A stretch of DNA of 64,000 nucleotides, from the NCBI RefSeq assembly GCF_003018255.1, contig NZ_CP027440.1, one strand, 5' to 3'. The position numbers were made by a program, and so were the translations under genes. Below the pieces are notes generated by a model. It did not search any database, had not been told where the DNA came from, and worked only from the letters and a program-made list of their open reading frames with translations. Positions 16,324 through 60,758 of the stretch are shown here, piece after piece (the stretch's first letter is position 1; each line of letters begins with the position of its first letter). This DNA is from Escherichia coli (GTDB lineage Bacteria > Pseudomonadota > Gammaproteobacteria > Enterobacterales > Enterobacteriaceae).

Positions 16324-18552
16324 ATGTATACACAGACCCTGTATGAGTTAAGTCAGGAGGCTGAACGCCTGTTACAGCTTTCTCGCCAACAGTTGCAGTT
16401 ACTGGAAAAAATACCTCTCTCTGTACCCGGAGACGATACGCCACAACTGGCTTTACCCTGGAGTCAGCCTAATATCGCCGAACGTCACGCGATGCTGAAT
16501 AATGAGTTGCGTAAAATTTCCCGGCTGGAAATGGTGCTGGCGATTGTCGGTACCATGAAAGCAGGGAAATCAACCACCATTAATGCCATTGTTGGTACGG
16601 AGGTTCTGCCTAATCGTAATCGCCCAATGACTGCGCTGCCAACGCTTATTCGCCATACGCCCGGGCAAAAAGAACCGGTACTGCATTTTTCACATGTCGC
16701 GCCAATCGACCATTTAATTCAACAATTACAACAGCGCCTGCGTGATTGCGATATTAAGCATCTGACCGATGTGCTGGAAATAGATAAAGATATGCGTGCG
16801 CTTATGCAGCGGATTGAAAATGGCATCGCTTTCGAAAAATATTATCTGGGTGCTCAACCTATTTTTCATTGTCTGAAAAGTTTGAATGATTTGGTGCGAC
16901 TGGCGAAGGCGCTGGACGTCGATTTTCCTTTTTCTGCTTACGCCGCCATTGAGCATATTCCCGTGATTGAAGTGGAGTTTGTCCATCTGGCGGGGCTGGA
17001 GAGTTATCCCGGTCAGTTGACGTTACTGGATACCCCCGGGCCAAATGAAGCCGGGCAACCGCATCTGCAAAAAATGCTTAACCAGCAGCTGGCACGCGCC
17101 TCGGCGGTACTGGCGGTGCTGGATTATACGCAACTGAAATCGATCTCCGATGAAGAGGTCCGTGAGGCAATTTTGGCGGTGGGGCAATCGGTGCCGTTGT
17201 ATGTGCTGGTCAATAAGTTCGATCAACAGGATCGTAACAGTGACGACGCCGACCAGGTGCGGGCACTGATTTCCGGGACGCTGATGAAAGGTTGTATTAC
17301 GCCACAGCAGATATTTCCGGTGTCGTCGATGTGGGGCTACCTGGCGAATCGGGTGCGCCATGAGTTAGCCAACAACGGTAAGTTACCACCGCCAGAGCAA
17401 CAACGCTGGGTGGAAGATTTTGCCCATGCCGCGCTCGGCAGGCGCTGGCGTCATGCCGATCTGGCGGACCTCGAACATATTCGTCATGCTGCCGATCAGT
17501 TGTGGGAAGATTCGCTGTTCGCCCAGCCAATTCAGGCGTTGCTTCATGCCGCTTACGCTAACGCCTCGTTGTATGCTCTGCGATCTGCCGCGCATAAACT
17601 GTTGAATTACGCGCAGCAGGCGCGGGAATACCTGGATTTTCGTGCGCACGGGTTAAACGTCGCTTGTGAACAATTGCGGCAAAATATCCATCAGATCGAA
17701 GAAAGTTTGCAGCTATTGCAACTCAATCAGGCGCAGGTGAGCGGCGAGATTAAACATGAAATCGAGCTGGCCCTGACCTCCGCCAACCACTTTCTGCGTC
17801 AACAGCAAGATGCGCTGAATGCGCAGTTAGCCGCCTTGTTTCAGGATGATTCAGGGTCATTAAGCGAGATTCGTACCTGCTGTGAGACACTGTTACAGAT
17901 GGCGCAGAACACCATTAGTCGCGACTTTACGCTGCGTTTTGCCGAGCTGGAATCCACCCTTTGCCGGGTGTTAACCGATGTTATTCGCCCCATTGAGCAA
18001 CAAATCAAAATGGAATTGAGCGAGTCAGGGTTTCGTCCTGGGTTTCATTTTCCTGTTTTTCACGGCGTAGTTCCCCACTTCAACACTCGCCAGCTGTTCA
18101 GTGAAGTCATTTCGCGCCAGGACGCAATGGACGAGCAGAGCACGCGTTTAGGCGTTGTGCGTGAGACTTTTTCGCGCTGGTTGAATCAGCCCGACTGGGG
18201 ACGGGGAAATGAGAAATCCCCGATAGAGACGGTTGATTACAGTGCGTTGCAACGAGCATTAAGCGCAGAAGTCGATCTTTATTGCCAACAAATGGCTAAA
18301 GTTCTGGCAGAGCAGGTCGATGAATCTGTTACGGCAGGCATGAATACTTTTTTCGCTGAGTTCGCTTCATGTTTGACGGAATTACAGACGCGTTTACGCG
18401 AAAGTCTGGCTCTGCGTCAACAAAATGAATCGGTGGTCAGGCTGATGCAGCAGCAATTGCAGCAGACTGTGATGACTCATGGCTGGATTTACACCGACGC
18501 TCAGCTGTTACGCGATGATATTCAAACACTTTTCACGGCAGAACGATATTGA
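16324..18552 (+). CDS. crfC: dynamin-like large GTPase (CrfC/YjdA)
   Basis: ORF track 16180..18552; start at ATG 16324 (MYTQTLYEL, AAGGAAG RBS at 16310); P-loop GTMKAGKSTTINAIVG. Confidence 0.85.
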   Translation: MYTQTLYELSQEAERLLQLSRQQLQLLEKIPLSVPGDDTPQLALPWSQPNIAERHAMLNNELRKISRLEMVLAIVGTMKAGKSTTINAIVGTEVLPNRNRPMTALPTLIRHTPGQKEPVLHFSHVAPIDHLIQQLQQRLRDCDIKHLTDVLEIDKDMRALMQRIENGIAFEKYYLGAQPIFHCLKSLNDLVRLAKALDVDFPFSAYAAIEHIPVIEVEFVHLAGLESYPGQLTLLDTPGPNEAGQPHLQKMLNQQLARASAVLAVLDYTQLKSISDEEVREAILAVGQSVPLYVLVNKFDQQDRNSDDADQVRALISGTLMKGCITPQQIFPVSSMWGYLANRVRHELANNGKLPPPEQQRWVEDFAHAALGRRWRHADLADLEHIRHAADQLWEDSLFAQPIQALLHAAYANASLYALRSAAHKLLNYAQQAREYLDFRAHGLNVACEQLRQNIHQIEESLQLLQLNQAQVSGEIKHEIELALTSANHFLRQQQDALNAQLAALFQDDSGSLSEIRTCCETLLQMAQNTISRDFTLRFAELESTLCRVLTDVIRPIEQQIKMELSESGFRPGFHFPVFHGVVPHFNTRQLFSEVISRQDAMDEQSTRLGVVRETFSRWLNQPDWGRGNEKSPIETVDYSALQRALSAEVDLYCQQMAKVLAEQVDESVTAGMNTFFAEFASCLTELQTRLRESLALRQQNESVVRLMQQQLQQTVMTHGWIYTDAQLLRDDIQTLFTAERY

Positions 18553-32287: not shown

Positions 32288-33025
32288 TCATTCACTCTCT
32301 TTCAAACCAGTTTTAACTGTTTGTGGTTTTGGGTAAGGCTGGACTTTGAATAGCTTTGTGTTGAGGCGTTTTCTGGCCCTCTTGTTCAGAAACCGGATGT
32401 AACGAAACTGTCGGAACTTATGCACACTGGCTCTGTCGATATTAGCCCTCAGATGTTCACCTCGTTGTCCGCCTCGTTTAATGGCACTCCTGCAAATCTC
32501 GTGATACCACTCGCCATCAAGTTCATAGAATGTTGATTCATGGCTGCCTACATAATCAAAATTGCTTGCCTGATACACGACACCAAGACAGCCACAACGC
32601 TCATCTGCAAACGACTGAACCCACTGTACCTGCGGATAAAGCTGCCTGATTAGCTTGAGCGCGTAACTGATTGCCCTTGATTCGGAGTTTCTCGGCATAC
32701 AGTCATGCATCCATAGCCGGTTAAGCTCCATATATTCTCGGTTCTGCGTACCCGTTACGACGCGTGCACCACTGTTTGGGTTAAGGGCGTAACCCCATTG
32801 CATTACGCCAACAAGTTCCCGTTCTGAAAATATACCCAGATGAAGGTAGGAATTATTTACGAAACGGTGGCTGTAATGTTTATTGACGATAACCAGTCTG
32901 GCCAGCCAGCAACTTATTGTCTCAACCCGCAACTCACGGGAGCCATAACCAACGATATTGTCGTTATAGCGAATAAGTTCAGGCGTGCTGATGATACGGG
33001 ATGTGACTTGCTTTCTGTTCCCCAC
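32288..33025 (-). CDS. mom: Mom-like DNA modification (adenine carbamoylmethylation) protein
   Basis: 245-aa ORF overlapping the 3' end of a com-like gene, last gene before the prophage end as in Mu; true start probably internal. Confidence 0.6.
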
Positions 33026-33179
33026 GACAGGATTTCCTTGTGTATGTGGGGTGCTCTGTGGCGCTCGGAGATGTGATTTGATTGAGGGTTTTACAGCGCG
33101 GACATTTTACTTCCAGATAACTGAAACTGGCCCGTGCCAGTAGCTTATTGCAGTGTCGGCACCGTATGTTTCGATACAT
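32979..33179 (-). CDS. com: Com-like zinc-finger translational activator of mom
   Basis: [14 protein letters not shown]...EVKCPRCKT... aligns with Mu Com (IRCKNCNKLL...IRCPRCK) from memory; overlaps the mom start. Confidence 0.7.
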
Positions 33180-33585
33180 GGCCGCATAACCTCCTGCTTT
33201 GTTGTTGATGCCTTTCTCATGCAATCGATCGACAAAAACGATCGATTCGATTTGTTTAATTGATACAACAAATAGATTTAAAAGTCATCAACAATGATTC
33301 AGGGCGGTGATTATTTACTTAAAGAAACGAAGAGTTAGGTGGTGAAAACGATCATAAAATGATCATTTTATTGACTTTTTATACAGTGAAGGTAGGATCG
33401 CGCGTATATGTAGTATGTTTCAAATCAACAGGATACTACATAAAAGGGAAACCCAGCATAGCTGGAACTATGCTGGGTCAATCTGTAAAAACTTGCATCA
33501 ATGCTTTACTTCGAGCTCGTGGCGTATCCTATGATATTCCCCGGTCTCCTGTAAAGCAGAGATGCATAAAAAGGAGATCTTTATC
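33180..33585. promoter_or_regulatory. AT-rich divergent control region upstream of com-mom with five GATC sites (33227, 33240, 33350, 33361, 33396)
   Basis: GATC density well above the roughly 1 per 256 bp expected by chance; position matches the methylation-sensitive region upstream of mom in Mu. Confidence 0.45.
33452..33477 (-). terminator. 10-bp-stem hairpin followed on the minus strand by a T-rich run
   Basis: cccagcatag ctggaa ctatgctggg; minus-strand downstream sequence tttcccttttta. Confidence 0.45.
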
Positions 33586-34312: not shown

Positions 34313-36361
34313 TTATGCCGCAGGGGTATTAACCTCAAGGACAACGCTCTCAAAAGACACGCCATAAGTTGCCCCTTTGGTGACATCTGTCAGTGTCAGC
34401 GTATCTTTGGCAGGGGAAAGTGCATCTTTCACCATCTGGAATGCCTGGCCCGGAGTGCCATCCAGCACAGGCGTTACCTGGGCACTTCCCGCCGTAAACT
34501 TCAGGACAAGTGTATGCCACTGGTTATTGTAGGCTCCAAATGATCCCAGTTTCGTATTCCCCCCTGTTTTATGGTGCATCAGATTTAACTGGCCGCCTGT
34601 TGTCTGGAGATAATACGCCATCAGGAACGGTGTGCCTGTACCACTCATGGTTACACCTTCCGGGACCGTATCGGTGTGGAGGTAAATACCCAGAGCAAAC
34701 TGGCCTTCTTTTACTTCACCTGACAGACGGAATTTACAGGTCAACTGACCACCATGCTTCAGAAGTTCACCGGCTGCATCAGTTCCATGGGTAAGCGTCC
34801 AGGTTTTTCCGCTTTGTTTGGATACGGTCAACGCTTTACCTTCGTCCGTCAGCTGGATTGTACCATCTGTAATTTTCCAGCCCTGAGCCGGGGCTTCTCC
34901 TGCTGATGCTTTAAGTGAAAGCAGCGTACGGAGTGACGGGGATGTCGGATGGGGGGACTCACTGCCTCCTGGCTGACTACCTGTCGGCGCTTCCGGTTTC
35001 CCACCCGGCGCGGGCTGAGGCAGGGCTTCACCATCAGGGGCCACACCGGCAATAAATGCAGAGGTCAGACCTGCATATTTAAGAATTGCTGATGCAAAAC
35101 GATCTGAGACCAGAAAACGGCGCGCCCAGGAGCTAAAATGGGTTGCCCTGGATGCTGTTGTCCAGTTGCCATCTCCCCGTGATTCCGCACCATAATACCC
35201 GGCAGAAGCGATATCCGGGTCGTGCTCCGGCAGGTTGGTCGCGGTTTTATTACCGAACTCATCGTGCATCAGTGGAACAAAGTGAATGTTCTCGGAAGCC
35301 CGGTTTTTATATCCGCTATAAATGGTTTCATATGCCGCCGGGTTCTTCTCTTTCCAGTCATAGGTTGTGTCACCACATAACCACGGCACACTGTCTGATG
35401 AACCACCAATACACTGACCGGAGAAAGCACCAAGATCCGCACGGAATTTTTTCACCATCGCAGTAAACTGGGCACCATGCTGGGCCGGGGTCGCTTTAAG
35501 GTCTCCTTCCCCCTGAATCCATACGACAGATAACAGCACATTCTTTGGATTCGCCTCAAGTGCCGCTTTAGTTCGACTGACAAGATCCTGATACAGTGGG
35601 GTATCCACTCCCCAGCGTAGTGACGCCTCGGCTGCACCACTTGCCGGATCGAATGAGCCAACTGCGCCGGTTGTAAAAGCAGAGCCGCCACGGGCACAGG
35701 GAACCAGTAAAATCCCGGCATCAGCAGGAATCACCGGTAATACTTTTTTCGCAATATGAAGTCCCTGCCCCACACAACCATACTGCCCTTTTTTCAGGTC
35801 TGCTTTTGGATGGTTCAGCAGACTCATATTCTGAACATCATGAAGGCAGTGATCTGCTGGAATGATTTCATTGTATTTGCAGGGAATACCTCCGGGGGTT
35901 TGTGTATTCCTGCGTGCCAGCTGCATAATACGTGGATCAGGACGATCATAAGAATCCGGAAGGGGCAACCCTTCACCATAAGATGAAGCATTGGACTGGC
36001 CGGCTATAACAATCACGTAATACCAGGAAGGGGAGCTGGAAGCAGTTTCATTTCCTGACGGACGGGTATGTGTTTCAGCATTATCCCAGTCTGACGGTTC
36101 AGCAGTACCGGCAACATCAGCACTTAACGGAATGACCGCACCAATACCCGCTCCGGTAATTTCCACACTCGGATCACCGGATACTGGCCTTACCCACAGG
36201 CAATCCCGTGTATTAAAACTGATGAGACAGTCAGCAAATGTCATTCCTCCTTTTGTTTCGGCCGGAGGAAAGGGAGCCTCAAGAAATGCCGCTGTACCAC
36301 CGGAAACTTTAACAGTAAAGTTTCCGGGCATTGATGATAGTTGAACCCATTTGGACGTCAT
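34313..36361 (-). CDS. SGNH/SASA-type sialate O-acetylesterase-like protein with C-terminal beta-rich putative carbohydrate-binding domain (resembles prophage NanS-p family)
   Basis: 682-aa ORF; IAGQSNASSYG esterase signature, Pro-rich linker, about 200-aa C-terminal domain; no signal peptide. Confidence 0.55.
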   Translation of the reverse strand: MTSKWVQLSSMPGNFTVKVSGGTAAFLEAPFPPAETKGGMTFADCLISFNTRDCLWVRPVSGDPSVEITGAGIGAVIPLSADVAGTAEPSDWDNAETHTRPSGNETASSSPSWYYVIVIAGQSNASSYGEGLPLPDSYDRPDPRIMQLARRNTQTPGGIPCKYNEIIPADHCLHDVQNMSLLNHPKADLKKGQYGCVGQGLHIAKKVLPVIPADAGILLVPCARGGSAFTTGAVGSFDPASGAAEASLRWGVDTPLYQDLVSRTKAALEANPKNVLLSVVWIQGEGDLKATPAQHGAQFTAMVKKFRADLGAFSGQCIGGSSDSVPWLCGDTTYDWKEKNPAAYETIYSGYKNRASENIHFVPLMHDEFGNKTATNLPEHDPDIASAGYYGAESRGDGNWTTASRATHFSSWARRFLVSDRFASAILKYAGLTSAFIAGVAPDGEALPQPAPGGKPEAPTGSQPGGSESPHPTSPSLRTLLSLKASAGEAPAQGWKITDGTIQLTDEGKALTVSKQSGKTWTLTHGTDAAGELLKHGGQLTCKFRLSGEVKEGQFALGIYLHTDTVPEGVTMSGTGTPFLMAYYLQTTGGQLNLMHHKTGGNTKLGSFGAYNNQWHTLVLKFTAGSAQVTPVLDGTPGQAFQMVKDALSPAKDTLTLTDVTKGATYGVSFESVVLEVNTPAA

Positions 36362-36460
36362 AATAATCAGCCTGTTCCTGAATAAACTGAATTATCATAT
36401 CCACAGACCGATAAACGCCATTTTGCGTTAATTCAGTAAAGGCCCAACAAAGAGAGCGTC

Positions 36461-37021
36461 TTATTTTTCCGAAACGCTCGCAGGATAATAACGATAAAGG
36501 GTTGAAAGACCGATATCAAAAATAAGTGCCACCTGTCTTCGACTGACACCCCCGGCCAGTAAACGCCCGACCTGCTCGTATTGTTCCTGCGTGAGACGGC
36601 GGGGTCTGCCGCCGGTTCGTCCCCTTTCACGGGCAGCTGCAAGACCAGCCCGTGTCCGTTCGACAATTAATTCACGCTCCATTTCTGCCAGCGCACCCAT
36701 TATGTGAAAAAAGAAACGCCCCATGGGGGTTGACGTATCAATGTTGTCAGTAAGACTACGAAAATTTATCCCCTGTTGCTGTAATTCATCTGTCAGCGCA
36801 ACAAGGTGGCGCATACTGCGCCCCAGCCTGTCCAGTTTCCAGACCATCAGTGTGTCACCGGGTTTTAGTTTCTTCAGTGCCCGCTTCAGTCCCGGCCGCT
36901 GTGTCGTTTTACCACTCATTTTGTCTTCAAAAATCTGCTCACATCCTGCACATTCCAGCGCATTTCTTTGTAAACCGGTGTTCTGGTCATTTGTTGATAC
37001 GCGTATATAGCCAATCAGCAT
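36461..37021 (-). CDS. gin: serine DNA invertase of the Gin/Hin/Cin/Pin family
   Basis: MLIGYIRVSTNDQNTGLQRNAL...GRFFFHIMGALAEMERELI aligns closely with Mu Gin (recalled); adjacent to the invertible segment. Confidence 0.9.
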   Translation of the reverse strand: MLIGYIRVSTNDQNTGLQRNALECAGCEQIFEDKMSGKTTQRPGLKRALKKLKPGDTLMVWKLDRLGRSMRHLVALTDELQQQGINFRSLTDNIDTSTPMGRFFFHIMGALAEMERELIVERTRAGLAAARERGRTGGRPRRLTQEQYEQVGRLLAGGVSRRQVALIFDIGLSTLYRYYPASVSEK

Positions 37022-50286: not shown

Positions 50287-51234
50287 TTACAGATAATCCG
50301 CGACAACCAGCTCCAGCTTGCCCTTCATCTCGTTAGAGACGGTTGCGTTTCCGTCTGCGAACAGTTCACGCTCCAGCAGCTGCACCGCCTGTTTTTCCAG
50401 CGAGGTGGGGACAACAATATGGGTGGGTTTGATGCCGAGTTTGCGGCCACCGTCAGCGGTAAATTCGCGCATGGCTGACCAGCCGTGCCACAGTGCATCC
50501 AGCGTCAGCGGTGACTGCATCATGTAGGCCATCTGCCAGAAGCCGTAGCCCACATTGCGACGGGCGGATGCACCAAACACAAATTCGTTATCGGTGAATG
50601 CGCGACCTTCATCGACTTTGGTCTGGGCAACCAGTTCAGCCTTACGGCGATCCTGATAAATCAGCGGTTTGATTGCGCGTGAACAGTCGAGCAGATACCA
50701 GGCAGGACCGCTGTAATCCGCTTGTGCACCGACAGAGCCGGTTTTTGCCACAAACATATTGCTGACCATCTGCGCATCCCCGGAGCCATCCACTTTGGGG
50801 TAAACAGGATGTTCGGTATCAAAGAAGTTCTGGCCGTCATAGCAGGCCGCATTAATCCCGTCACGAAGAGCAGCAAAGACCAGTTCATCCGGTTGTGCCG
50901 CAGCAGCGCGCCCCATCTCCTGGAACAACGGGGAATAAATACCGAGGTTATCGTCTTCGAAGTCATCGCGGTTAATGGCGACGGTGCCTTCAAAGGTTTT
51001 GTTCACGATGGCATAGCCATAGGCCTTCATCTTCTCGATGACGCGGGAGCCGATCCACTCACGGAACTGCGGGAACTGCCCCAGCCAGCCGTAGGTGTTG
51101 GATTTCGACGTGGACGGTACGGTCATCGCAATTTTTTTGTACTGCGACGGGGCCATGGACATCCCGGCCTGAAAATCAGAACGGTAGCCCGTCATCAGGG
51201 CGGTGATCATCGCCGGTGTAATCGGGGTAGGCAT
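50287..51234 (-). CDS. major head subunit (Mu T-like)
   Basis: 315-aa ORF directly downstream of protease/scaffold gene. Confidence 0.75.
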   Translation of the reverse strand: MPTPITPAMITALMTGYRSDFQAGMSMAPSQYKKIAMTVPSTSKSNTYGWLGQFPQFREWIGSRVIEKMKAYGYAIVNKTFEGTVAINRDDFEDDNLGIYSPLFQEMGRAAAAQPDELVFAALRDGINAACYDGQNFFDTEHPVYPKVDGSGDAQMVSNMFVAKTGSVGAQADYSGPAWYLLDCSRAIKPLIYQDRRKAELVAQTKVDEGRAFTDNEFVFGASARRNVGYGFWQMAYMMQSPLTLDALWHGWSAMREFTADGGRKLGIKPTHIVVPTSLEKQAVQLLERELFADGNATVSNEMKGKLELVVADYL

Positions 51235-52358
51235 TATTGCATTTCCTCTTTCATTTTCAGGAACTCGGCTTCGGTTTTACCCAGCAGTTTGGCGGCCGCG
51301 ATATCTTCAGCCGACAGCACAGCGGTGGCAGTCTTTTTATCCGGCACGGTCACGGTGTCGGTCTGAAGGCCGGTCAGGGCCGCAACCGGCTGGCGGGCGT
51401 CAAGCTGTGCAGAAAGTGCCGCAACGCCAATCTGCCCGCCCAGTTGTTCCAGATAGCCGCGTTCGCTTTTGAAGATGCGCCCTTCGGATTCAGCCTTGTC
51501 CAGCACCTGCTCCAGCGTGGTGCTGCCGTGCTGCGCCGACAGCGCAACGTATTCGGTACGCAGGGCGTTATACGTTTCAACGGGCACGTATTTCGTCAGA
51601 TCAATACTGCCGCCAGCCGGTGTGCCTTTTGCGGTTTCCAGCTCTGCCGACAGACTGGCGACCTGTGTTTTCAGGTTGTCGTGTGCATCCGCACGGGTTT
51701 TGATCCCGGTGAGGGCAGACAGCGCCGCCGTGCCCAGCTCCGGCGTAAATTCGTCACCGTCAGCCACGGTCAGACCGAGCGCCGTCAGCAACTGGCGTAA
51801 TTGCTCATTCATGGAGGTATCCTTTAAAGGAGGGTTTAAGGCGTTATAAAGGTCATCCGCCGACAGTGCGGCGACAGGATTCATGCCGGTCAGACCGGGG
51901 TCACCGGTAATAGCCAGCATCCGAAGTTCGACAGGTTCGCCGGTGCTCTCGTCATAGCCAATCACCGGTGAAAACCAGGGGAATTCGTTATTACGCAGAT
52001 GTTCAAGGGCCGGAGGGTTCCACTTCGGGCGCACCTCGAAACCTCGCTCTTCACTGAAGCGAAAATTCTCCGGTGAGGCCATCACAAAACCGGCAGCCGG
52101 TGCCGGATGTCCCTCAATCAGGGTCTGGTGGTTGTAGTCAATTTTCACCGGCTGATTGAGCGCCACAACACGGGAGACCATGCGCTCAACGGCTGCATGG
52201 TTGATCAGCCAGCCCTCGGCCGGTTTTTCCGGGCGACCGTCACGGGCCTTTACCCGACCGGCTGGCATGATCTGACACCAGTCACCGTCCCCGTCTGCGG
52301 ACAGGCTGATGGCATTCAGAATGGCATAAGCAAGTTTGGGCGTGTTTTTCGTCTTCAT
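51234..52358 (-). CDS. head maturation protease with nested scaffold (Mu I/Z-like)
   Basis: 374-aa ORF, Ala-rich coiled C-terminal half. Confidence 0.7.
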   Translation of the reverse strand: MKTKNTPKLAYAILNAISLSADGDGDWCQIMPAGRVKARDGRPEKPAEGWLINHAAVERMVSRVVALNQPVKIDYNHQTLIEGHPAPAAGFVMASPENFRFSEERGFEVRPKWNPPALEHLRNNEFPWFSPVIGYDESTGEPVELRMLAITGDPGLTGMNPVAALSADDLYNALNPPLKDTSMNEQLRQLLTALGLTVADGDEFTPELGTAALSALTGIKTRADAHDNLKTQVASLSAELETAKGTPAGGSIDLTKYVPVETYNALRTEYVALSAQHGSTTLEQVLDKAESEGRIFKSERGYLEQLGGQIGVAALSAQLDARQPVAALTGLQTDTVTVPDKKTATAVLSAEDIAAAKLLGKTEAEFLKMKEEMQ

Positions 52359-52534
52359 TCCGGCAGCATAGGCCGGGAATTTTCAGGGCGGGTTTTGCGG
52401 GATTTCAGGAAGTGCTTCCAGGGGAAAAATACAAAGGCGCTTCACGCAGATTTTAAAGCCCGTTAAATACAGGTTAGAAAATCACGACACGCGCCTGAAG
52501 GGGGTAAGGTAATGCATTTGCATACCTTAAACAA
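52359..52534 (-). promoter_or_regulatory. 176-bp non-coding gap upstream of the protease gene with imperfect palindrome aggtaatgcatttgcatacctt; candidate activator-dependent late promoter
   Basis: The only sizeable gap inside the otherwise tightly packed head operon. Confidence 0.3.
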
Positions 52535-53008
52535 TTAAGGCGTTTCTGTGGCCTTTTTAAAGCGTTTTCTGATTTCGTCCATGATCTCCTGCTCTGCCAC
52601 CTGATCAAAGCCCATATACGGACGTGCACCAATGGCCGCCGGTCCCGGCGGCATACCTGGCAGGCCACCCCACTGATGAATGGCCGCATAAGGCTCATTT
52701 GATCCAATCAGCGCCCAGGTGTCGCCATAATCCGTGGTCAGGCGTCGGGCCAGATCGCCGTTCAGCGTCAGGATTTTGCCGGGCATGTATCCCTTACGGG
52801 TACGCCACTTGCGGTAAGGATCTGACCAGTCATGCCAGCGTTCGCCGTCCGGCTCTTTTTCCTGTTCAAACGCCATTTCTGACGATGACAGAAGGCTGGA
52901 CGCCACACTGCGGGCCAGGTCTTTTCCGCCACCCACAAACTGAAGCCGGGCAAAGACCCGCTGGAGACGCGTAACGTCAACAACGACGGCGGCATCAATG
53001 GATGACAT
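52535..53008 (-). CDS. virion morphogenesis protein (Mu G-like)
   Basis: 157-aa ORF between F-like and I-like genes. Confidence 0.6.
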   Translation of the reverse strand: MSSIDAAVVVDVTRLQRVFARLQFVGGGKDLARSVASSLLSSSEMAFEQEKEPDGERWHDWSDPYRKWRTRKGYMPGKILTLNGDLARRLTTDYGDTWALIGSNEPYAAIHQWGGLPGMPPGPAAIGARPYMGFDQVAEQEIMDEIRKRFKKATETP

Positions 53009-53129
53009 ATTGCCTCCGTATAAAATATGAATATAAAATAAGCAGGCGGTCAGTGTACGCTTAACTGGTAAAGTCGGTGCCTGCCTCCGGGTGGATCATG
53101 TATGCGGGTTCGACCCCCGCCACTGACCG

Positions 53130-54461
53130 TTAATCAATATCTCCTTCCAGTACCTCAAGCATTCCGCCCCGGATATCCGATTTCAGCTTATCCATATTGA
53201 TAACCCGGTAAGCATTAACAATCACATCCAGTTTATCCGGCTGACGCTTCAGGCTGTACGGTGCATTAACGGCAATCTGCACACTGCCATCCTGATTTTC
53301 CACGATATACATCAGATTGTTGTGCCGTTTGTCCCACAGTACCGCTTTTGGCCTTGCCAGCATTGCCGGTAAGCGCCCGAAATCCTCCGGTGTCAGGGCG
53401 ATACCGTCATTCTGATGTTTCATGCTGTCCGCATGGAGCACATTTTTACCGCTCATCGCCAGCAGGCGGGCCGGTGGCGTTCCCGTCCGGCTTTCCACCG
53501 CCTGCGCAATGCTTTCGGTCATAAAGCCCAGCGTGCGGATATCGTTACCGCCTCGCCGGGTTTTCATGATGTTTTTTGCCCAGATGCGGAACGCCAGCTG
53601 CCGCTCCGGGCTGTTGTTCATCTCCTGAACCACCATTTCCCGTAACGCCGGGCTTTTCACCTCGATCAACTTGCGGAGCAGCGCCTGGTCTGTGCCGAAC
53701 GCCGCCGAACCGGGGTTATATGACCAGCCCACATCCGGTGTCATGGTTCTGGTGCCATCTGAATATGTGGTCACCGGCATTTCTCTGACTTCTCCGGTCT
53801 GCTTATCCACGCCAGCCTCAACATTGCGGGTGGAAAGATGATCCTGACCGGATGAAACGGATAACCCCATTGCATCCAGACGGGTCTGAGACAATGGCCG
53901 GACACGGCAGCGGCAGTTCCAGCCATTGGGTGGGTAGTGTGTATTCCAGAACGGATCGTCATAGCGGAATACCAGACCGTTAAGGGCGGAATGCGCCGGG
54001 CGGGTGCGGCTGTCCATCACCGCCACATACTGCCAGAACGGATGCGTGTCCGTGTTGTTCATCATCTGCGTGTAACGCCCGGCATTGTAAGCCACGCGGG
54101 TGTTCACGTTGTAAATCAGCGCCAGACGGCGGGGACAGCCCAGCTGCACTTCTTCTGCGTTACCGGCGCTGTCCACCACAATCTGCTTTCCCCACCATCC
54201 CAGCTTTTGCAGGCGGGGGGTCAGTGTGCGGATAAATGCTTTCTGTGAAATCCCCTCATCAATGGCCCGTTGCACTTCCGCCTGTAGTGTGGTCAGTACG
54301 TCCAGGCGTGCCACTTTTGCCGCCGTGAACGAACGGGCATGAACATCCGCGTCTGTTTCGAACCAGTTCCAGCTGATATGCGCCCCTTTGGCGCGGAAGT
54401 ATGCCACCGCCTCTTTTGAGGGAAGCGTGGCGGCATAACCTAAATCAATCCCCTGTGCCAT
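53130..54461 (-). CDS. head morphogenesis protein (Mu F-like)
   Basis: 443-aa ORF downstream of portal. Confidence 0.65.
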   Translation of the reverse strand: MAQGIDLGYAATLPSKEAVAYFRAKGAHISWNWFETDADVHARSFTAAKVARLDVLTTLQAEVQRAIDEGISQKAFIRTLTPRLQKLGWWGKQIVVDSAGNAEEVQLGCPRRLALIYNVNTRVAYNAGRYTQMMNNTDTHPFWQYVAVMDSRTRPAHSALNGLVFRYDDPFWNTHYPPNGWNCRCRVRPLSQTRLDAMGLSVSSGQDHLSTRNVEAGVDKQTGEVREMPVTTYSDGTRTMTPDVGWSYNPGSAAFGTDQALLRKLIEVKSPALREMVVQEMNNSPERQLAFRIWAKNIMKTRRGGNDIRTLGFMTESIAQAVESRTGTPPARLLAMSGKNVLHADSMKHQNDGIALTPEDFGRLPAMLARPKAVLWDKRHNNLMYIVENQDGSVQIAVNAPYSLKRQPDKLDVIVNAYRVINMDKLKSDIRGGMLEVLEGDID

Positions 54462-56043
54462 CCAGCATCCCCTTCATTTCCGCAGCAAACATGGCATCAC
54501 TGAGCAGCGTCATCAGGCGGGAATCATCCATTTCACGGTAAAGGGCAGGCAGGTCTGCCAGTGCCTCCGCCAGCCCCCGCGTTCTGATGGCATCAATGAC
54601 CGGCTCCAGTACCGGGTCGATGGCCTCCTGTAACCGGCGGGCAGGCACCGCATCCCCCATGTCGTCCAGTTCATCTCGGGGGCTGCTTTTCGCTTCCGGC
54701 AGTCTGGCAGCCAGCGCTGTCTGCTCTGTCTTCTCCTGTTTTTCCGGTGGCATCTCTTTGTCTGTCTGAGCAGGTTCATTGCCACTCTGACGGACACGGA
54801 AGATGGCTTCACCGGGGGCAGGCTGTGGAATACCGGTCTGCTCCCGTACCCAGGGATCAGGAATATCCATCCCCGTACTGAGCTGCATCACCGCACTGGT
54901 GATTTTGGTGATATCCCCCGGCTCTTTTGTCTGGAAACAGATACGCGGCAGGCGACGGATATCAATGGCGTGGGCGGTGTTCAGGGCATACAGCGGATAC
55001 ACCAGATCGCGGTTCAGCGTGGCGGCCAGCTGACGTAAATCAGAATCCCTGATTTCCCGGCGCACCTCGTTATGCACTTCACCCAGCGAACGTGCGCCCT
55101 TGTCTCCGGCTTCCGTGGTCAGCGTGCCGCCGAGGATAGCTTTGGAGATGGAACGCTCCCCCCACGAAATCATGGTTTCAAACGGATCGGCCTGACCGTT
55201 CGCTGCCGCCTGAAACTCCAGCGACATCCCGGCCGGGATGATCCCGCCTGTACGTCGCCCGATATCCATCACCGCCCGCATCAGGGCGCTTTTCTGCTCC
55301 GGTGTTGCCCCGGAGGGGTATTTACCGACCTTCATCGGCAGGCCGTACACCTCCAGAAATTCAGCCAGATCGCGCACGGAATAGTTTTTGAAAATGAACG
55401 GCCAGATAAGCGTTCTGACAAGCCCCGTCGCACCACCGTAGCCGGTGCGTGAACGTGACTGATGCACTATCCAGCCAAAGGGCTGAAACGCCACCCCGGC
55501 ATGGCTGCCGTCACGCAGCCGCAGTTCGCTCAAATCATCCGGGTTAAGGCAGAAATGCCCGCTGTCACGCCAGCGGATGGCGCGGATGATGTGCATTTTA
55601 CCGAGCATCCCGTGCTCAATCTCCATGCAGGAATAGCCTTTCAGGATGGCATCGGTGGCATCAAACAGCATGGCATCAAACCAGTCGGCGGAATGCAGAT
55701 ATTCGTCGAGCATTTCCGCGTCCTTTTTCTCATTCGCGCTGGCGTTCGGGGGCGGCTCAATACTCCAGGGCACGCCCTGAATGGCAAGACGTCGCTTGCC
55801 CAGCTCTGCAAAAAGGTGGGTATCCTTTTCTTCAATGTCAGCGGCCAGATCGGACTGGGCAATCAGATCGCCACGTTCAGCCCCGCGAAGGCACTGTGCC
55901 GCCCGGTTCGGGGTGATACCCGAGGCCGGATGTTCAATATAACGGCTGGCAATCTGCGGAATATCCAGCGCGGCGCTCTGCATCTCCGGGTCAAAGGAGA
56001 AAGGTTTTCCGTCAAGATCAATTATACGTCCCACTACCAGCAC
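54445..56043 (-). CDS. portal protein (Mu gp29-like)
   Basis: 532-aa ORF directly downstream of terminase large subunit. Confidence 0.7.
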   Translation of the reverse strand: MLVVGRIIDLDGKPFSFDPEMQSAALDIPQIASRYIEHPASGITPNRAAQCLRGAERGDLIAQSDLAADIEEKDTHLFAELGKRRLAIQGVPWSIEPPPNASANEKKDAEMLDEYLHSADWFDAMLFDATDAILKGYSCMEIEHGMLGKMHIIRAIRWRDSGHFCLNPDDLSELRLRDGSHAGVAFQPFGWIVHQSRSRTGYGGATGLVRTLIWPFIFKNYSVRDLAEFLEVYGLPMKVGKYPSGATPEQKSALMRAVMDIGRRTGGIIPAGMSLEFQAAANGQADPFETMISWGERSISKAILGGTLTTEAGDKGARSLGEVHNEVRREIRDSDLRQLAATLNRDLVYPLYALNTAHAIDIRRLPRICFQTKEPGDITKITSAVMQLSTGMDIPDPWVREQTGIPQPAPGEAIFRVRQSGNEPAQTDKEMPPEKQEKTEQTALAARLPEAKSSPRDELDDMGDAVPARRLQEAIDPVLEPVIDAIRTRGLAEALADLPALYREMDDSRLMTLLSDAMFAAEMKGMLDGTGD

Positions 56044-57698
56044 CCCCGATCAAATTCATGATATGCCTCATCGTCATCACGATAACCGCCCTCCATGGCC
56101 CGCGACCGCTCCGGCAGCGCCTGACAGGCTGATTCATCCAGGATGAAGCCCTCCATGTATGACGCCCGGTTTGCCATACAGAGCGCCACGGCAAAATCGC
56201 CATGGCGGCGGGCGTTCACAGCCGTTGCGTTCTGGTCCTTCGTACGCCCCTTGTCAATTTGCGGGATACCGTTCACCACCTTCACATGGCGCAAATCATC
56301 AAGCGTGGTCTGATGGCGGGCGACGAGGATATTCTGATCCTCAAACTCGGCCTTCAGTTTTGGCATCCACTCGCCGTACCACTTCGGCGATAACATCACG
56401 CAGTCGATGATGTCCGGGCCAAAGGCCAGCAGCGCGGCTTCGGCCAGATAGCCGCCGTTACCGGTGGCGTCGAACGCCGCACCGACCAGCGCCGGAACGC
56501 GGGTCAGGATGTACATCATCACCTGCTCCTGCTGGGCATACGGCAGGTTGCGCAGCTCCACGCGAAACACCTCGCGTTTTGCCAGGGATTCAGTGATTTC
56601 CAGCAGCACAAAGCAGGAGAGGTCACCGATGCGGGCAAAGTCTTCCCCGAAGCTGAAGCGGGAACGGGGATTTAACGCCTCTAAAAGCGGTTTTAAATGT
56701 TCTTCACACCAGGTTAAAACCTCCGATTCACGCAGCCATGCGGCACGGCTGATGAAGTCGTCCGGGGCTTCAAACGTCAGAATCGGGATGTCGCGGAGCA
56801 TCGCCATTTCAATAAGCGCGTGAGGAATATAGGCACCGCCGGATTTTTTCGGGATACAGCCGTATTCCTCGTCGGCATCCTCACGGGTCGGGGCGTTTTT
56901 GTAGAGATCATCACGCCACTTCTGCTCGCTTTCCGGTGACCATTCGCGGCCGGTGACATAACAGATACGACGGTACAGCCCGTCCGCAATGGCATCATCC
57001 AGGGTAATGCGGTGGACGCTGTAATCCTTGCGCCCCTCGCGGGCTTCCTGAATGTACTGATTAAACAGATTATCGACGCCGTTATGCGTGGAGATAATAC
57101 GCACGCGCGCGCCCCACATGGTGAGCGCCATTGCCGCCTTGAGAAGCTCATCCAGTGACTCGTGGAACGCGGCTTCATCAATCACCACATCCCCCTGAAG
57201 GCCGCGCAGGTTTGACGGACGGGAAGACAGTGCCTGAATTTTGAATCCACTGTTCGGAAAGCGGATCATGTAGGTCAGAATTTCTTCTTTTTTATCCCGA
57301 TCCCAGAAGGTCTGCTCATACACATCAGCATCTGCCAGCTGGTTAAAGGCACGGGAGAACAGTGCGCAGGCAGAAATATATTCCAGCGCCATCTCCTGCT
57401 TTGACCCCACATAAAACACATTGCGGCCACCACGCCGCTTAGGCTTTGCGGCGGTAATGACGTTACGCCCGGCTTCCGCCCAGGTAAGCCCGGTGCGGCG
57501 GGATTTTTCCGCGATGCAGACCTCGCTTTCATCCTCAAACCAGCGGGCCTGATAATCCAGAAATACCGGCATATCACCGGGCAAATCAAGGCTGTCCGGC
57601 ACATCCACGCCCAGCAGGGCTTTTTCACCGGCCAGATCAATTTTGCGGGTGGAGACGGTATTCGTCAGTAAGGGGGAGAGTTCTTCGGCGTTATTCAT
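56034..57698 (-). CDS. terminase large subunit (Mu gp28-like)
   Basis: 554-aa ORF; size and position upstream of portal. Confidence 0.75.
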   Translation of the reverse strand: MNNAEELSPLLTNTVSTRKIDLAGEKALLGVDVPDSLDLPGDMPVFLDYQARWFEDESEVCIAEKSRRTGLTWAEAGRNVITAAKPKRRGGRNVFYVGSKQEMALEYISACALFSRAFNQLADADVYEQTFWDRDKKEEILTYMIRFPNSGFKIQALSSRPSNLRGLQGDVVIDEAAFHESLDELLKAAMALTMWGARVRIISTHNGVDNLFNQYIQEAREGRKDYSVHRITLDDAIADGLYRRICYVTGREWSPESEQKWRDDLYKNAPTREDADEEYGCIPKKSGGAYIPHALIEMAMLRDIPILTFEAPDDFISRAAWLRESEVLTWCEEHLKPLLEALNPRSRFSFGEDFARIGDLSCFVLLEITESLAKREVFRVELRNLPYAQQEQVMMYILTRVPALVGAAFDATGNGGYLAEAALLAFGPDIIDCVMLSPKWYGEWMPKLKAEFEDQNILVARHQTTLDDLRHVKVVNGIPQIDKGRTKDQNATAVNARRHGDFAVALCMANRASYMEGFILDESACQALPERSRAMEGGYRDDDEAYHEFDRGCW

Positions 57699-58279
57699 CA
57701 GGCTTTACCCAACAGAATCCCCTTAATACGGGACTCAAGCTGTTCACTCATCCCGTCCACGCCGCGCAGCTCGTCGGTGACGGCGTTTGCCATCTCTTCA
57801 GCAAATGCAGCCCGGATTTCTTTTTCACGCTTAATGCTGCGCTCGGCGGCACTTTCCGCACGCTGTGCTGACAGGAGGATGTCCTTAATAAGACGCATAT
57901 CCACGTCGCTGTCACTGTTCAGGGATTCGGTCGCGGCACGCAGACGGCGGTACATCAGGGCGCGGGACATCTCCAGAATCAGCGCTGTGGTTTCACCGGT
58001 TGGCTTGTCTCCCAGTTCGGCCATCATGGCTTTTGTCTGCTCGCGTAAATCACGCAGGTTACGGGCAATCAGCTCATTACGGGAGGCTTCCCGGCTGATG
58101 GCCGCCGGTGAAAGCTGCTGCTCTTCCGGCAGGCCCGCCTCACGGATCAGACGGTTGATTTCCTCGCGTATCTGGACCTGCGTCAGACGTTTTTCACGCA
58201 GCATTTCCAGCAGTGGCTTACGGATGCTGTCGGGGAGCAAATCCACCTTGCGCACGCGTCCACGCGTCGGCTTGTCCAT
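57698..58279 (-). CDS. terminase small subunit-like / DNA-binding protein (Mu gp27-like)
   Basis: 193-aa charged helical ORF immediately upstream of the large terminase. Confidence 0.5.
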   Translation of the reverse strand: MDKPTRGRVRKVDLLPDSIRKPLLEMLREKRLTQVQIREEINRLIREAGLPEEQQLSPAAISREASRNELIARNLRDLREQTKAMMAELGDKPTGETTALILEMSRALMYRRLRAATESLNSDSDVDMRLIKDILLSAQRAESAAERSIKREKEIRAAFAEEMANAVTDELRGVDGMSEQLESRIKGILLGKA

Positions 58280-59760: not shown

Positions 59761-60261
59761 TCAGACTTTCGGCAAGTCGTAGCGACATAACCATTCATCC
59801 GCCGAACGGCGGGCCTCAAGGCCGGGGAGTTTCACCCCCTTTGAATAAATCCAGCGGATATACTGCTTACAGGACGCGGGCATCTGCCCGGCATTGATCA
59901 GGCGCAGAAGCGTGGAGTTGCGAAAGTTCGTTTCACCGGCCCAGAAGATCCACGAAGCCAGCGCCACCGTCTGACCACGGGTAAGCGGCACCTGAACACG
60001 CCGATCAATGGCCGCAAAGGCCCATTTCATGTCCTTTTCCAGTAGTTCCAGGCATTCTTCATCTGTCAGGGTCATACCCGGTTTCACATCCGGGCCGGTA
60101 TGGCCGTAACAGATGGTGGGTGTACCGGAGGGATCGATATACGTGGAGTTTTCTTTCCCTTCCCAGTAACCGGTGTAATGCGTGGCAATCGTGAACGTCC
60201 CGGCACCGGCCAGAACAAGGGCAATCAGCTTTTTACGCAGTGGTGCGGGGAGTTTTGGCAT
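59761..60261 (-). CDS. SAR endolysin (T4-lysozyme-like, GH24)
   Basis: N-terminal Gly/Ala-rich weak TM (LIALVLAGAGTFTIA) then E...D...T catalytic spacing (YWEGKE..YIDPSGTPTICYG). Confidence 0.7.
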   Translation of the reverse strand: MPKLPAPLRKKLIALVLAGAGTFTIATHYTGYWEGKENSTYIDPSGTPTICYGHTGPDVKPGMTLTDEECLELLEKDMKWAFAAIDRRVQVPLTRGQTVALASWIFWAGETNFRNSTLLRLINAGQMPASCKQYIRWIYSKGVKLPGLEARRSADEWLCRYDLPKV

Positions 60262-60332
60262 TGTTACGCTGTCTCATGATGTTCTCTGAGTCAGCGTAAC
60301 GGTGAAGGAGAGGCGGCAGGCTTTGCGGAATA

Positions 60333-60758
60333 TCAGAAAAGTGGCGGTTGCGTTCTTGCCAGATGCAGACGGCGCTGTTCGCGTATGACGGTATAAATCT
60401 GGGTTTCTGACATCCGGTAATGGCGGCGAAGGGATTCAATTTTCTCGCCCCGGTCCCAGCGCGAAAATATCTCATTGTTTCGCAGCTCGGCAAAGAGAGA
60501 TTCCCCGACCGGCAGGTAATAACCCCGTCCGCCCATATAGGCTGCCTGAGCCGCAGCCACCTTGCGTGCCAGTTTACCGGCCAGTACCGGCTCAATCCCC
60601 TGACGCTGAAGTTCTGCGCCGGTGACTTCAACCAGTTCTGACAGGGTCCGCGGCCAGTTCTTTTTGAGAACATCATCAGGGATGTCATCAAGGCGGTCGA
60701 TAAGGGCGTGCAGTTGCTCACTGTCACCACCAAACATGCTCATCTGAGTTTCTGCCAT
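60333..60758 (-). CDS. Mor/C-family transcriptional activator
   Basis: C-terminal region GGRGYYLP...IYTVIREQRRL resembles Mu Mor (GGGQVYIP...VYKAIRRMRRL, recalled); immediately upstream of the lysis gene. Confidence 0.65.
   Translation of the reverse strand: MAETQMSMFGGDSEQLHALIDRLDDIPDDVLKKNWPRTLSELVEVTGAELQRQGIEPVLAGKLARKVAAAQAAYMGGRGYYLPVGESLFAELRNNEIFSRWDRGEKIESLRRHYRMSETQIYTVIREQRRLHLARTQPPLF

Follow-up and report, generated by a model that had tools for sequence, protein, structure and literature searches.

The 64,000-nt stretch of Escherichia coli DNA analyzed here (contig NZ_CP027440.1; hereafter the window, in whose coordinates all features are given) carries most of one Mu-like prophage on its minus strand, which is also the strand of the head operon genes. 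The subject of this work is a 176-bp intergenic spacer located inside this operon, between homologs of the Mu genes G and I, the first being upstream of the spacer and the second downstream in the direction of the gene strand (Table 1). An earlier note on this DNA had described here an untranslated gap of 176 bp, and the list of open reading frames (ORFs) places it exactly at 52359-52534; by contrast, its description of the operon as otherwise overlapping is contradicted by two further gaps, of 121 bp between F and G (53009-53129) and of 43 bp between T and gp35. No ORF longer than 23 codons was found in the spacer, apart from two spurious ones that run into I or G in a different frame. The candidates considered, which were ORFs of 20-23 codons in the gap and the 119-aa and 77-aa ORFs overlapping I and G, were dismissed as mechanical. 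A search with the covariance models of Rfam 15 gave no match at E ≤ 1 within 52200-52700, and neither an integration host factor (IHF) consensus nor a GATC site was found within the gap. The spacer probably contains two adjacent and independent cis elements, a strong gyrase site (SGS) on the G-proximal side and the late promoter P_I on the I-proximal side. A central SGS and a P_I are already known features of a Mu-like prophage, and both were to be expected from Mu.

Of 5426 complete E. coli genomes, 227 carry the spacer and its flanks. The segment 52330-52570, which includes the gap and, on either side, 30-35 bp of flanking sequence, is identical at 241 of 241 positions to the G-I region of Sp18, a prophage of E. 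coli O157:H7 Sakai annotated as "Mu-like phage" (NC_002695.2, 5040971-5079729). Over 20 kb, the best match to the window is E. coli strain War, and Sakai lies outside the 60 best matches. Judged by its sequence, the gap corresponds to the G-I spacer in a Mu-like transposable prophage of the Sp18 type. The Sakai Sp18 site and that of the window come from different strains and share the spacer, the genes next to it and their location within the prophage, and no difference between the two spacers could be detected.

In Mu and FluMu a gyrase site is located between gpG and gpI (PMC2628397). The RefSeq record of Mu places a "gyrase cut site" at 17879/17880, that is, 20 nt past the stop codon of G (end of G, 17859; start of I, 18056), and the Mu SGS has an essential right arm, whereas its left arm is dispensable. 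In the passages that a review devotes to this subject (PMC10052514), the sole heterologous site able to promote Mu replication is the SGS of a Mu-like prophage of O157:H7 Sakai, so that the sequence reported there to substitute functionally for that of Mu is identical to that of the window; these passages, and the corresponding ones of a second article (PMC3820752), cite Oram and Pato 2004 (J Bacteriol 186:4575) on the Sakai site. The position within the prophage is central in both cases, with the spacer at 47.1% of Sp18 and the stop codon of G at 48.6% of Mu. The SGS of Mu was reportedly described by Pato, Howe and Higgins in 1990, and the 2004 work of Oram and Pato is said to include specific gyrase cleavage of the Sakai site both in vitro and in vivo.

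The conservation of the spacer was assessed among 14 distinct close variants. The 72-bp block that follows the palindrome described below, and that we assign to the right arm of the gyrase site, showed only 4 variable columns among them, varying less than the first 30 nt of gene I. Its A/T tracts ATTTTCTAA, TATTTAA and TTTAAAAT are phased at around 12 bp, with a fourth tract, TTTGTATTTTT (52435-52425), crossing the downstream edge of the block. Among 64-nt windows, the A/T periodicity of this arm ranks in the top 1.1%; the corresponding figure for the right arm of Mu, ranked within Mu, is 1.75%. When the 176-bp gap and the 196-bp Mu spacer were aligned locally, a single block of 27 nt was obtained (CGTGATTTTCTAACCTGTATTTAACGG here, CGGGATTTTTAAACCGGTATTTAACGG in Mu), and the two spacers are unalignable outside it. 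The score of this block was 34, against 16.7 ± 2.3 in 1000 shuffles (maximum 26, with none reaching 34), and its offset from the G stop is 48-75 in the window and in Mu alike. The same layout of the 27-nt block was also detected in the relatives L026-L033, and relatives whose G is 61-74% identical show an irregular, GC-containing core followed, about 48 nt past the G stop, by phased tracts of the TTTTTGAAA type. In its sequence, the right arm of the window fits a Mu-type SGS in three respects, its phased A/T tracts, its 27-nt Mu block and its invariance. The left arm would correspond to the last 50-60 bp or so of the G-like gene, by analogy with the 130-bp gyrase footprint (PMC6379681).

The imperfect palindrome that the earlier note had placed in the gap was found. 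The string quoted there, aggtaatgcatttgcatacctt, lies on the plus strand at 52507-52528, and on the gene strand the palindrome reads AAGGTATGCAAATGCATTACCTT (52528-52506) and begins 6 nt past the G stop codon. As an inverted repeat in DNA it is not above chance: a perfect arm of its length or longer appeared in 143 of 1000 dinucleotide shuffles of the gap, and a symmetry of its grade (8 of 11 pairs) in 337 of 1000. Its relevance comes from its position. Counted from the G stop, the centre (52517) lies at offset 17, and offsets 16-19 read AATG in the window and AATC, the cleavage overhang, in Mu, whose register was read from the 133-bp Mu SGS fragment given in the Topo-Seq supplement together with the motif coordinates published there. 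From this register the 4-nt cleavage overhang is predicted at around 52515-52518, uncertain by a few bp, and the palindrome is predicted to mark the core of the gyrase site, where the G-segment is cleaved. According to the description of the motif in the E. coli gyrase Topo-Seq study (Sutormin et al. 2019, PMC6379681), the site covers 130 bp, with a symmetric core and arms of G/C-A/T periodicity of around 10.75 bp, and its consensus core, GGTAT-N4-ATACC, is palindromic. The palindrome of the window has GGTAT and TTACC, but its half-sites are 9 nt apart instead of 4. Matching to the core consensus GGCGGTAT-N4-ATACCGCC, and the search for a palindrome centre common to the relatives, were noisy and were dropped; the true Mu core also fits this consensus poorly.

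Compared with the SGS of Mu, the site of the window is similar in its location in the G-I spacer, in a core about 17 nt past the G stop, in its central position and in the phased A/T right arm that includes the 27-nt block at equal offset, and differs in the core itself, GGTATGCAAATGCATTACC in the window and GGCATAAAATCAGCCGCAC in Mu, where no palindrome exists at this place. Several points weigh against the assignment. The placement of the overhang is a positional one; the first right-arm A-tract of Mu, ATTTTTTAAAA, is missing from the window; and the PCR fragment of Oram and Pato can only be presumed, in view of the wording of the review, to be exactly the G-I spacer. In addition, the gyrase-motif score at the site has a z of 2.3, which is only within the top 1% of window positions. 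This score is a crude S/W proxy built from the published consensus in place of a real position-frequency matrix, and it has little power, since the real Mu SGS ranks only 8th among separate peaks in 27.7 kb; its local maximum falls exactly at 52517. The unremarkable proxy score and the lost A-tract, together with the fact that many Sp18-type prophages may be defective, would suit a spacer working as a promoter region only, in which the similarity to the Mu gyrase site is vestigial and without gyrase function in the prophage. We regard this as very improbable, as the 72-bp block outdoes the adjacent coding sequence in conservation, the Sakai site promotes Mu replication according to the passages of the review mentioned above (PMC10052514), and the position of the spacer in the prophage is central.

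The palindrome could also act as RNA, as a hairpin at the 3' end of the G cistron that stabilizes, processes or weakly terminates the late transcript, in which case the expression of I would depend on P_I; such a role could coexist with a gyrase site. The predicted fold has -10 kcal/mol and a z of -3.3, reached in 1 of 200 shuffles, and the hairpin starts 5-6 nt past the G stop. A rho-independent terminator is annotated at the same place in the Mannheimia phage 3927AP2, and several relatives have a T-run shortly after the core. However, the hairpin of the window is A/U-rich and is followed by ACCCCCUUC, without a U-tract, and a terminator scan detected no rho-independent terminator in the gap. 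Among the close variants, five inner positions of the palindrome are variable, with inner pairs broken in L009, L015 and L016, and no compensatory double changes were found. The outer 6-bp arms are constant in all 14 variants, and due to this invariance they are uninformative on RNA structure, for or against. On balance, we consider a function of the palindrome as RNA unlikely, and its assignment to the gyrase-site core is preferred.

The second element, a predicted promoter, occupies the side of the gap nearest to I and lies 100-150 bp downstream from the palindrome. The earlier note had equated the gap, by its position, with the activator-dependent late promoter that precedes I in Mu, and this interpretation was partly right: a candidate P_I is present, but the palindrome had been assigned to the wrong element, as it belongs to the gyrase site. 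Mu P_I is a C-dependent late promoter (PMC4461284), and the fragment giving C-dependent transcription in vitro corresponds to the I-proximal 86 bp of the Mu spacer. Mu late promoters have a -10 without a -35, their imperfect dyad of 16 bp is centred at -43.5, with protection by Mu C from -30 to -55 (PMC2582627), and the C consensus is TTAT-N5-6-ATAA (PMC12867686). Four of these promoters can be read as ATAA-N24-hexamer, the hexamers being TAGACT, CAAACT, TATCCT and TAAGAT.

In the window, a -10-like hexamer TATGCT ends 6 nt before the ATG of I. There is no match to a -35 at P_I, where positions -35 to -30 read ACCCGC, and a scan with the sigma-70 consensus detected no complete promoter in the gap on the gene strand. 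A box, CTGAAATCCCGCAAA, is found at P_I, at lys and at one further gene, each time followed 23-24 nt later by TAYGMT. The check proposed in the earlier note, a motif shared with the upstream region of lys, gave a positive result, since an 18-nt motif of the gap, CTGAAATCCCGCAAAACC (52408-52391), recurs at the C-lys junction as CTGATATTCCGCAAAGCC (60336-60319) with equal spacing to the hexamer, in such a way that GCAA-N24-TATGCT at I matches GCAA-N24-TACGCT at lys. The common 18-nt pattern, allowing up to 3 mismatches, has 2 matches in 64 kb against 0.37 expected. The TATGCT hexamer is invariant in the close variants. If +1 is the A of the I ATG, the box extends from -51 to -36, which is the geometry of the C site in Mu. 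In a second lineage, in which identity amounts to 82% for lys and 73% for G, I is preceded by ACTGATTTACCGCAAA-N-TAAGCT and lys by ACTGAACTACCGCAAA-N-TACTCT, both with N24. A family survey was also carried out on 80 diverse Mu-like contigs (L173-L252) found with the alignment of the I protein, which provided 54 distinct upstream sequences. In many of these a family box cTGAAcCCcTTC starts at -51/-50 upstream of I, the counterpart in the window being CTGAAATCCCGC, and more distant relatives keep the promoter box, with an unrelated sequence at the position of the palindrome.

The register of the box was set by the box-to-hexamer spacing of the window's own promoters, because the register based on Mu was inconsistent: alignment to Mu through AATCCC or CCCGCA, which was tried and rejected, gave N28 in one case and N20 in the other. 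An AATCCC located 20 nt upstream of a -10-like hexamer was observed in many Mu-like promoters (L182, L198, L213, L214, L216 and P_lys of Mu); the AATCCC of the window (52407-52402) is 31 nt upstream of the hexamer, in a shifted register, and is degenerate at the P_lys of the window.

These data bear on the role that the palindrome could have as the operator of the late promoter, to which a dimeric activator would bind in order to switch on I. Activators of the Mor/C family do bind imperfect dyads (PMC2582627), and the palindrome lies in the right spacer, with outer 6-bp arms conserved in the close variants. Nevertheless, it spans 148-170 bp upstream of the I ATG, with its centre at 159 bp, far from the -43.5 on which C sites are centred and outside the -30 to -55 region, and the sequence after it has no -10-like hexamer at the distance needed. 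The upstream regions of lys and com have no copy of it, whereas the motif that the gap does share with lys, at the correct geometry, is another one; the symmetry of the palindrome as a DNA repeat does not exceed chance; and the distant relatives that keep the box have an unrelated sequence in its place. An operator function for the palindrome is thus extremely unlikely.

The candidate P_I resembles Mu P_I, reportedly the subject of work by Margolin, Rao and Howe in 1989, in its location in the I-proximal part of the spacer, in having a -10 without a -35, in a box that ends 24 nt before the hexamer and in the presence of a Mor/C-family activator encoded just upstream of lys. It differs in the box, CTGAWWTNNCGCAAA instead of TTAT-N5-6-ATAA, and in the start of the gene, as Mu I has a leader of about 27 nt with an AGGA Shine-Dalgarno (SD) sequence, whereas in the window the hexamer stands 6 nt before the ATG and no SD is present. 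The predicted P_I would hence work as a C promoter, on a site that is not specific for Mu C. Such a non-Mu box fits the C homolog encoded in the window, which has 39% identity with Mu C and differs from it at 3 of the 6 DNA-contacting residues (R98E, Q116T and R120E). There are, on the other side, four points that weigh against this promoter: the Mu C consensus is absent from the gap and from the upstream region of lys, the dyad symmetry of the P_I box is weak, the searches detected no box ahead of com/mom or the P homolog, and a second -10 candidate, GAAAAT (52384-52379), recalls the arrangement of one related subgroup.

If this GAAAAT, and not TATGCT, were the -10 of P_I, the transcript would have a leader of about 14 nt without SD, and the box would overlap the -35 region. 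CTGAAA-18 nt-GAAAAT resembles a weak sigma-70 promoter, and L177, L178, L180 and L192 carry (G/T)AAAAT-GG just 5' of the hairpin at the start of I. However, many close variants no longer have the final T of the hexamer (L009, L014 and L016 read GAAAAA), in contrast to the invariance of TATGCT; there is no hexamer at the equivalent spacing in P_lys; and the family as a whole shows its peak of NANNNT at -12 to -7 from the ATG. We therefore find it quite unlikely that GAAAAT is the -10 of P_I, and TATGCT is kept for this position.

The gap is in this way fully divided into gyrase core and right arm (around 52528-52434), a variable linker (52433-52410) and P_I (52409-52358), with sizes of about 100, 25 and 52 bp, and the palindrome is reassigned from the promoter to the gyrase-site core, with the whole 176 bp accounted for. 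In the proposed mechanism, DNA gyrase would bind to the G-proximal element, with the cleaved G-segment at the palindrome or a few bp from it (centre around 52517), and the right arm (52505-52434) would wrap one GyrA C-terminal domain and present the T-segment, leading to unusually processive supercoiling. From its central position, the site would give rise to a plectonemic loop that joins the prophage ends, allowing transpososome assembly and efficient replicative transposition after induction. This mechanism has been shown for Mu, and would operate by analogy in the prophage of the window. Independently, the C-family activator would bind the box CCTGAAATCCCGCAAA (52409-52394) and help the sigma-70 RNA polymerase to open the -35-less promoter at TATGCT (52370-52365), with a transcription start on the A of the I start codon or a few nt away from it. 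This scheme of box, -10 and start site is deduced from motif sharing, spacing and conservation, and has to be taken as a prediction.

Table 1. Genes and predicted elements of the G-I region and of the C-lys region of the Mu-like prophage (window coordinates).
Feature	Position	Strand	Remarks
gp27-like gene	57698-58279	-	
Large terminase	56034-57698	-	
Portal	54445-56043	-	
MuF	53130-54461	-	
Mu G-like virion morphogenesis gene, 157 aa	52535-53008	-	Pfam Phage_tail_S, E = 1e-33; 71.5% DNA identity with Mu G
G-I intergenic spacer, 176 bp	52359-52534	.	Untranslated according to the ORF list
Imperfect palindrome AAGGTA-N11-TACCTT, predicted gyrase-site core (G-segment)	52506-52528	.	Register with Mu
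Right arm of the predicted gyrase site, near-invariant 72-bp block	52434-52505	.	Conservation and A/T phasing
27-nt block CGTGATTTTCTAACCTGTATTTAACGG, common to the Mu SGS right arm	52460-52486	-	Local alignment
Predicted late-activator binding box CCTGAAATCCCGCAAA	52394-52409	-	Shared with P_lys, conserved
-10-like hexamer TATGCT of the predicted P_I	52365-52370	-	Spacing shared with lys
Inverted repeat CCGGC-ctatgct-GCCGG bracketing the -10 hexamer and abutting the I start codon	52360-52376	-	RNA fold -8.7 kcal/mol, z = -2.3
Mu I-like head protease/scaffold gene, 374 aa	51234-52358	-	Pfam Mu-like_Pro, E = 2e-76
Major head protein T	50287-51234	-	
Late transcription activator, Mu C homolog, presumed to act on the boxes	60333-60758	-	PHROG 532 "late transcriptional activator", E = 3e-45
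lys	59761-60261	-	Directly downstream of the C homolog
P_lys, comparison promoter: box CTGATATTCCGCAAA (60322-60336), -10 TACGCT (60293-60298)	60293-60336	-	

The comparison promoter P_lys was also followed in phages whose C is 84% identical, in which its box and hexamer are invariant and the 24-nt spacer between them is variable. A third and relaxed copy of the box, CTGAATTAACGCAAAA-N-TATGAT with N23, was observed at 36394-36436 on the minus strand (the box itself at 36421-36436), in a 99-bp spacer between an invertase (36461-37021) and a 682-aa ORF (34313-36361). This ORF, a NanS-p-like accessory gene, has SASA (sialate O-acetylesterase) and DUF6645 domains, and with a functional third box this esterase gene would be expressed late in the lytic cycle. 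A predicted recognition box of a diverged C-family activator, CTGAWWTNNCGCAAA, was defined at three sites of the prophage, as a side result of the analysis. The upstream region of com/mom (33177-33290, minus strand; com starts at 33179 and mom occupies 32288-33025) contains clustered GATC sites, a feature it shares with Mu. The earlier note had also suggested comparing the gap with this region for a shared motif, and here the outcome was negative, with neither the palindrome nor a recognizable late-activator box found in 33177-33290.

The predicted P_I has consequences for the start of gene I, which has no SD sequence: its duplex with the anti-SD has -2.6 kcal/mol, in comparison with -3.8 to -11.9 in the other head-operon genes, and is among the three weakest of the 15 phage genes compared, together with those of lys (-2.7) and the tape measure gene (-1.4). 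Since TATGCT ends 6 nt before the I ATG, the normal start would be the A of this codon, and transcription is predicted to begin at, or within a few nt of, the I ATG (52358). The hexamer is moreover bracketed by an inverted repeat that abuts the start codon. Among the 54 distinct upstream sequences of the family survey, an NANNNT hexamer ends at -7 from the I ATG in 30 and at -8 in 8, with no more than 6 at every other offset, and a perfect inverted repeat of at least 5 bp that ends up to 2 nt from the ATG was found in 56%, against 4.4% of shuffles. The typical form in the family is GCCGCC-TAATCT-GGCGGC-ATG, and analogous stems with different sequences are found at the start of I in other lineages. 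As the registers differ between lineages, a single consensus helix is not drawable on the ungapped alignment, and the hairpin was judged by fold z-scores per lineage and by the stem-length test; each of the ten lineages examined gave a negative z (between -0.4 and -4.6, with -2.3 in the window). In Mu the 27-nt leader of I bears, besides the AGGA SD, a hairpin with a z of -4.4.

Leaderless mRNAs are known in temperate phages, as is the case of lambda cI transcribed from P_RM. The arrangement at I is similar to that of the cI type in a -10 that puts +1 at the A of the AUG and in the lack of an SD, and differs in that it concerns an activator-dependent promoter of a late structural gene, with the hexamer inside an inverted repeat. 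We tentatively put forward the possibility that the I mRNA is leaderless in Sp18-type and many other Mu-like phages, though not in Mu, with the -10 of P_I placed in the loop of a hairpin and translation set by the point at which the RNA starts. Transcripts from P_I would start with the AUG itself, without the 5' arm of the G+C-rich repeat abutting it, whereas read-through transcripts would fold the hairpin over the SD-less start of I; this suggests that late-promoter RNAs are translatable and read-through RNAs occluded. An analogous hairpin containing the -10 may govern lys. A search of the available literature found no description of a leaderless I with its -10 embedded in a hairpin, and its occurrence across Mu-like phages is possibly a new side result.

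Two observations on the starts of I and lys stand beside this. An in-frame ATG preceded by AAGGA is present at codon 183 of I (about 51810-51812, minus strand), at the position of the internal start of the scaffold gene Z in Mu, and a scaffold gene nested in I and having a ribosome-binding site (RBS) of its own would fit a weak, SD-less initiation of the full-length protease. At the start of lys (60262-60300, minus strand), the RNA is predicted to form a hairpin of -20.1 kcal/mol (z of -6.0) in which GUUACGCUG, containing the -10 TACGCT, pairs with CAGCGUAAC, just before the SD-less ATG of lys. This hairpin could occlude the start of lys in read-through RNA coming from C, and RNA started at P_lys would be without its 5' arm. 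In the second lineage this anti-RBS hairpin is weak to moderate (z of -0.6 to -2.8), and Mu has instead a terminator-like hairpin after C.

Finally, a tRNA-like sequence was detected inside the F-G gap at 53049-53128, on the plus strand and hence antisense to the head operon. It has a long variable region and matches Rfam RF00005 with 31 bits, the gathering score being 29 (E = 5e-5), and ARAGORN made no call on it. Identical copies of this element are annotated in RefSeq as "tRNA-OTHER", and one diverged copy as "tRNA-Tyr".

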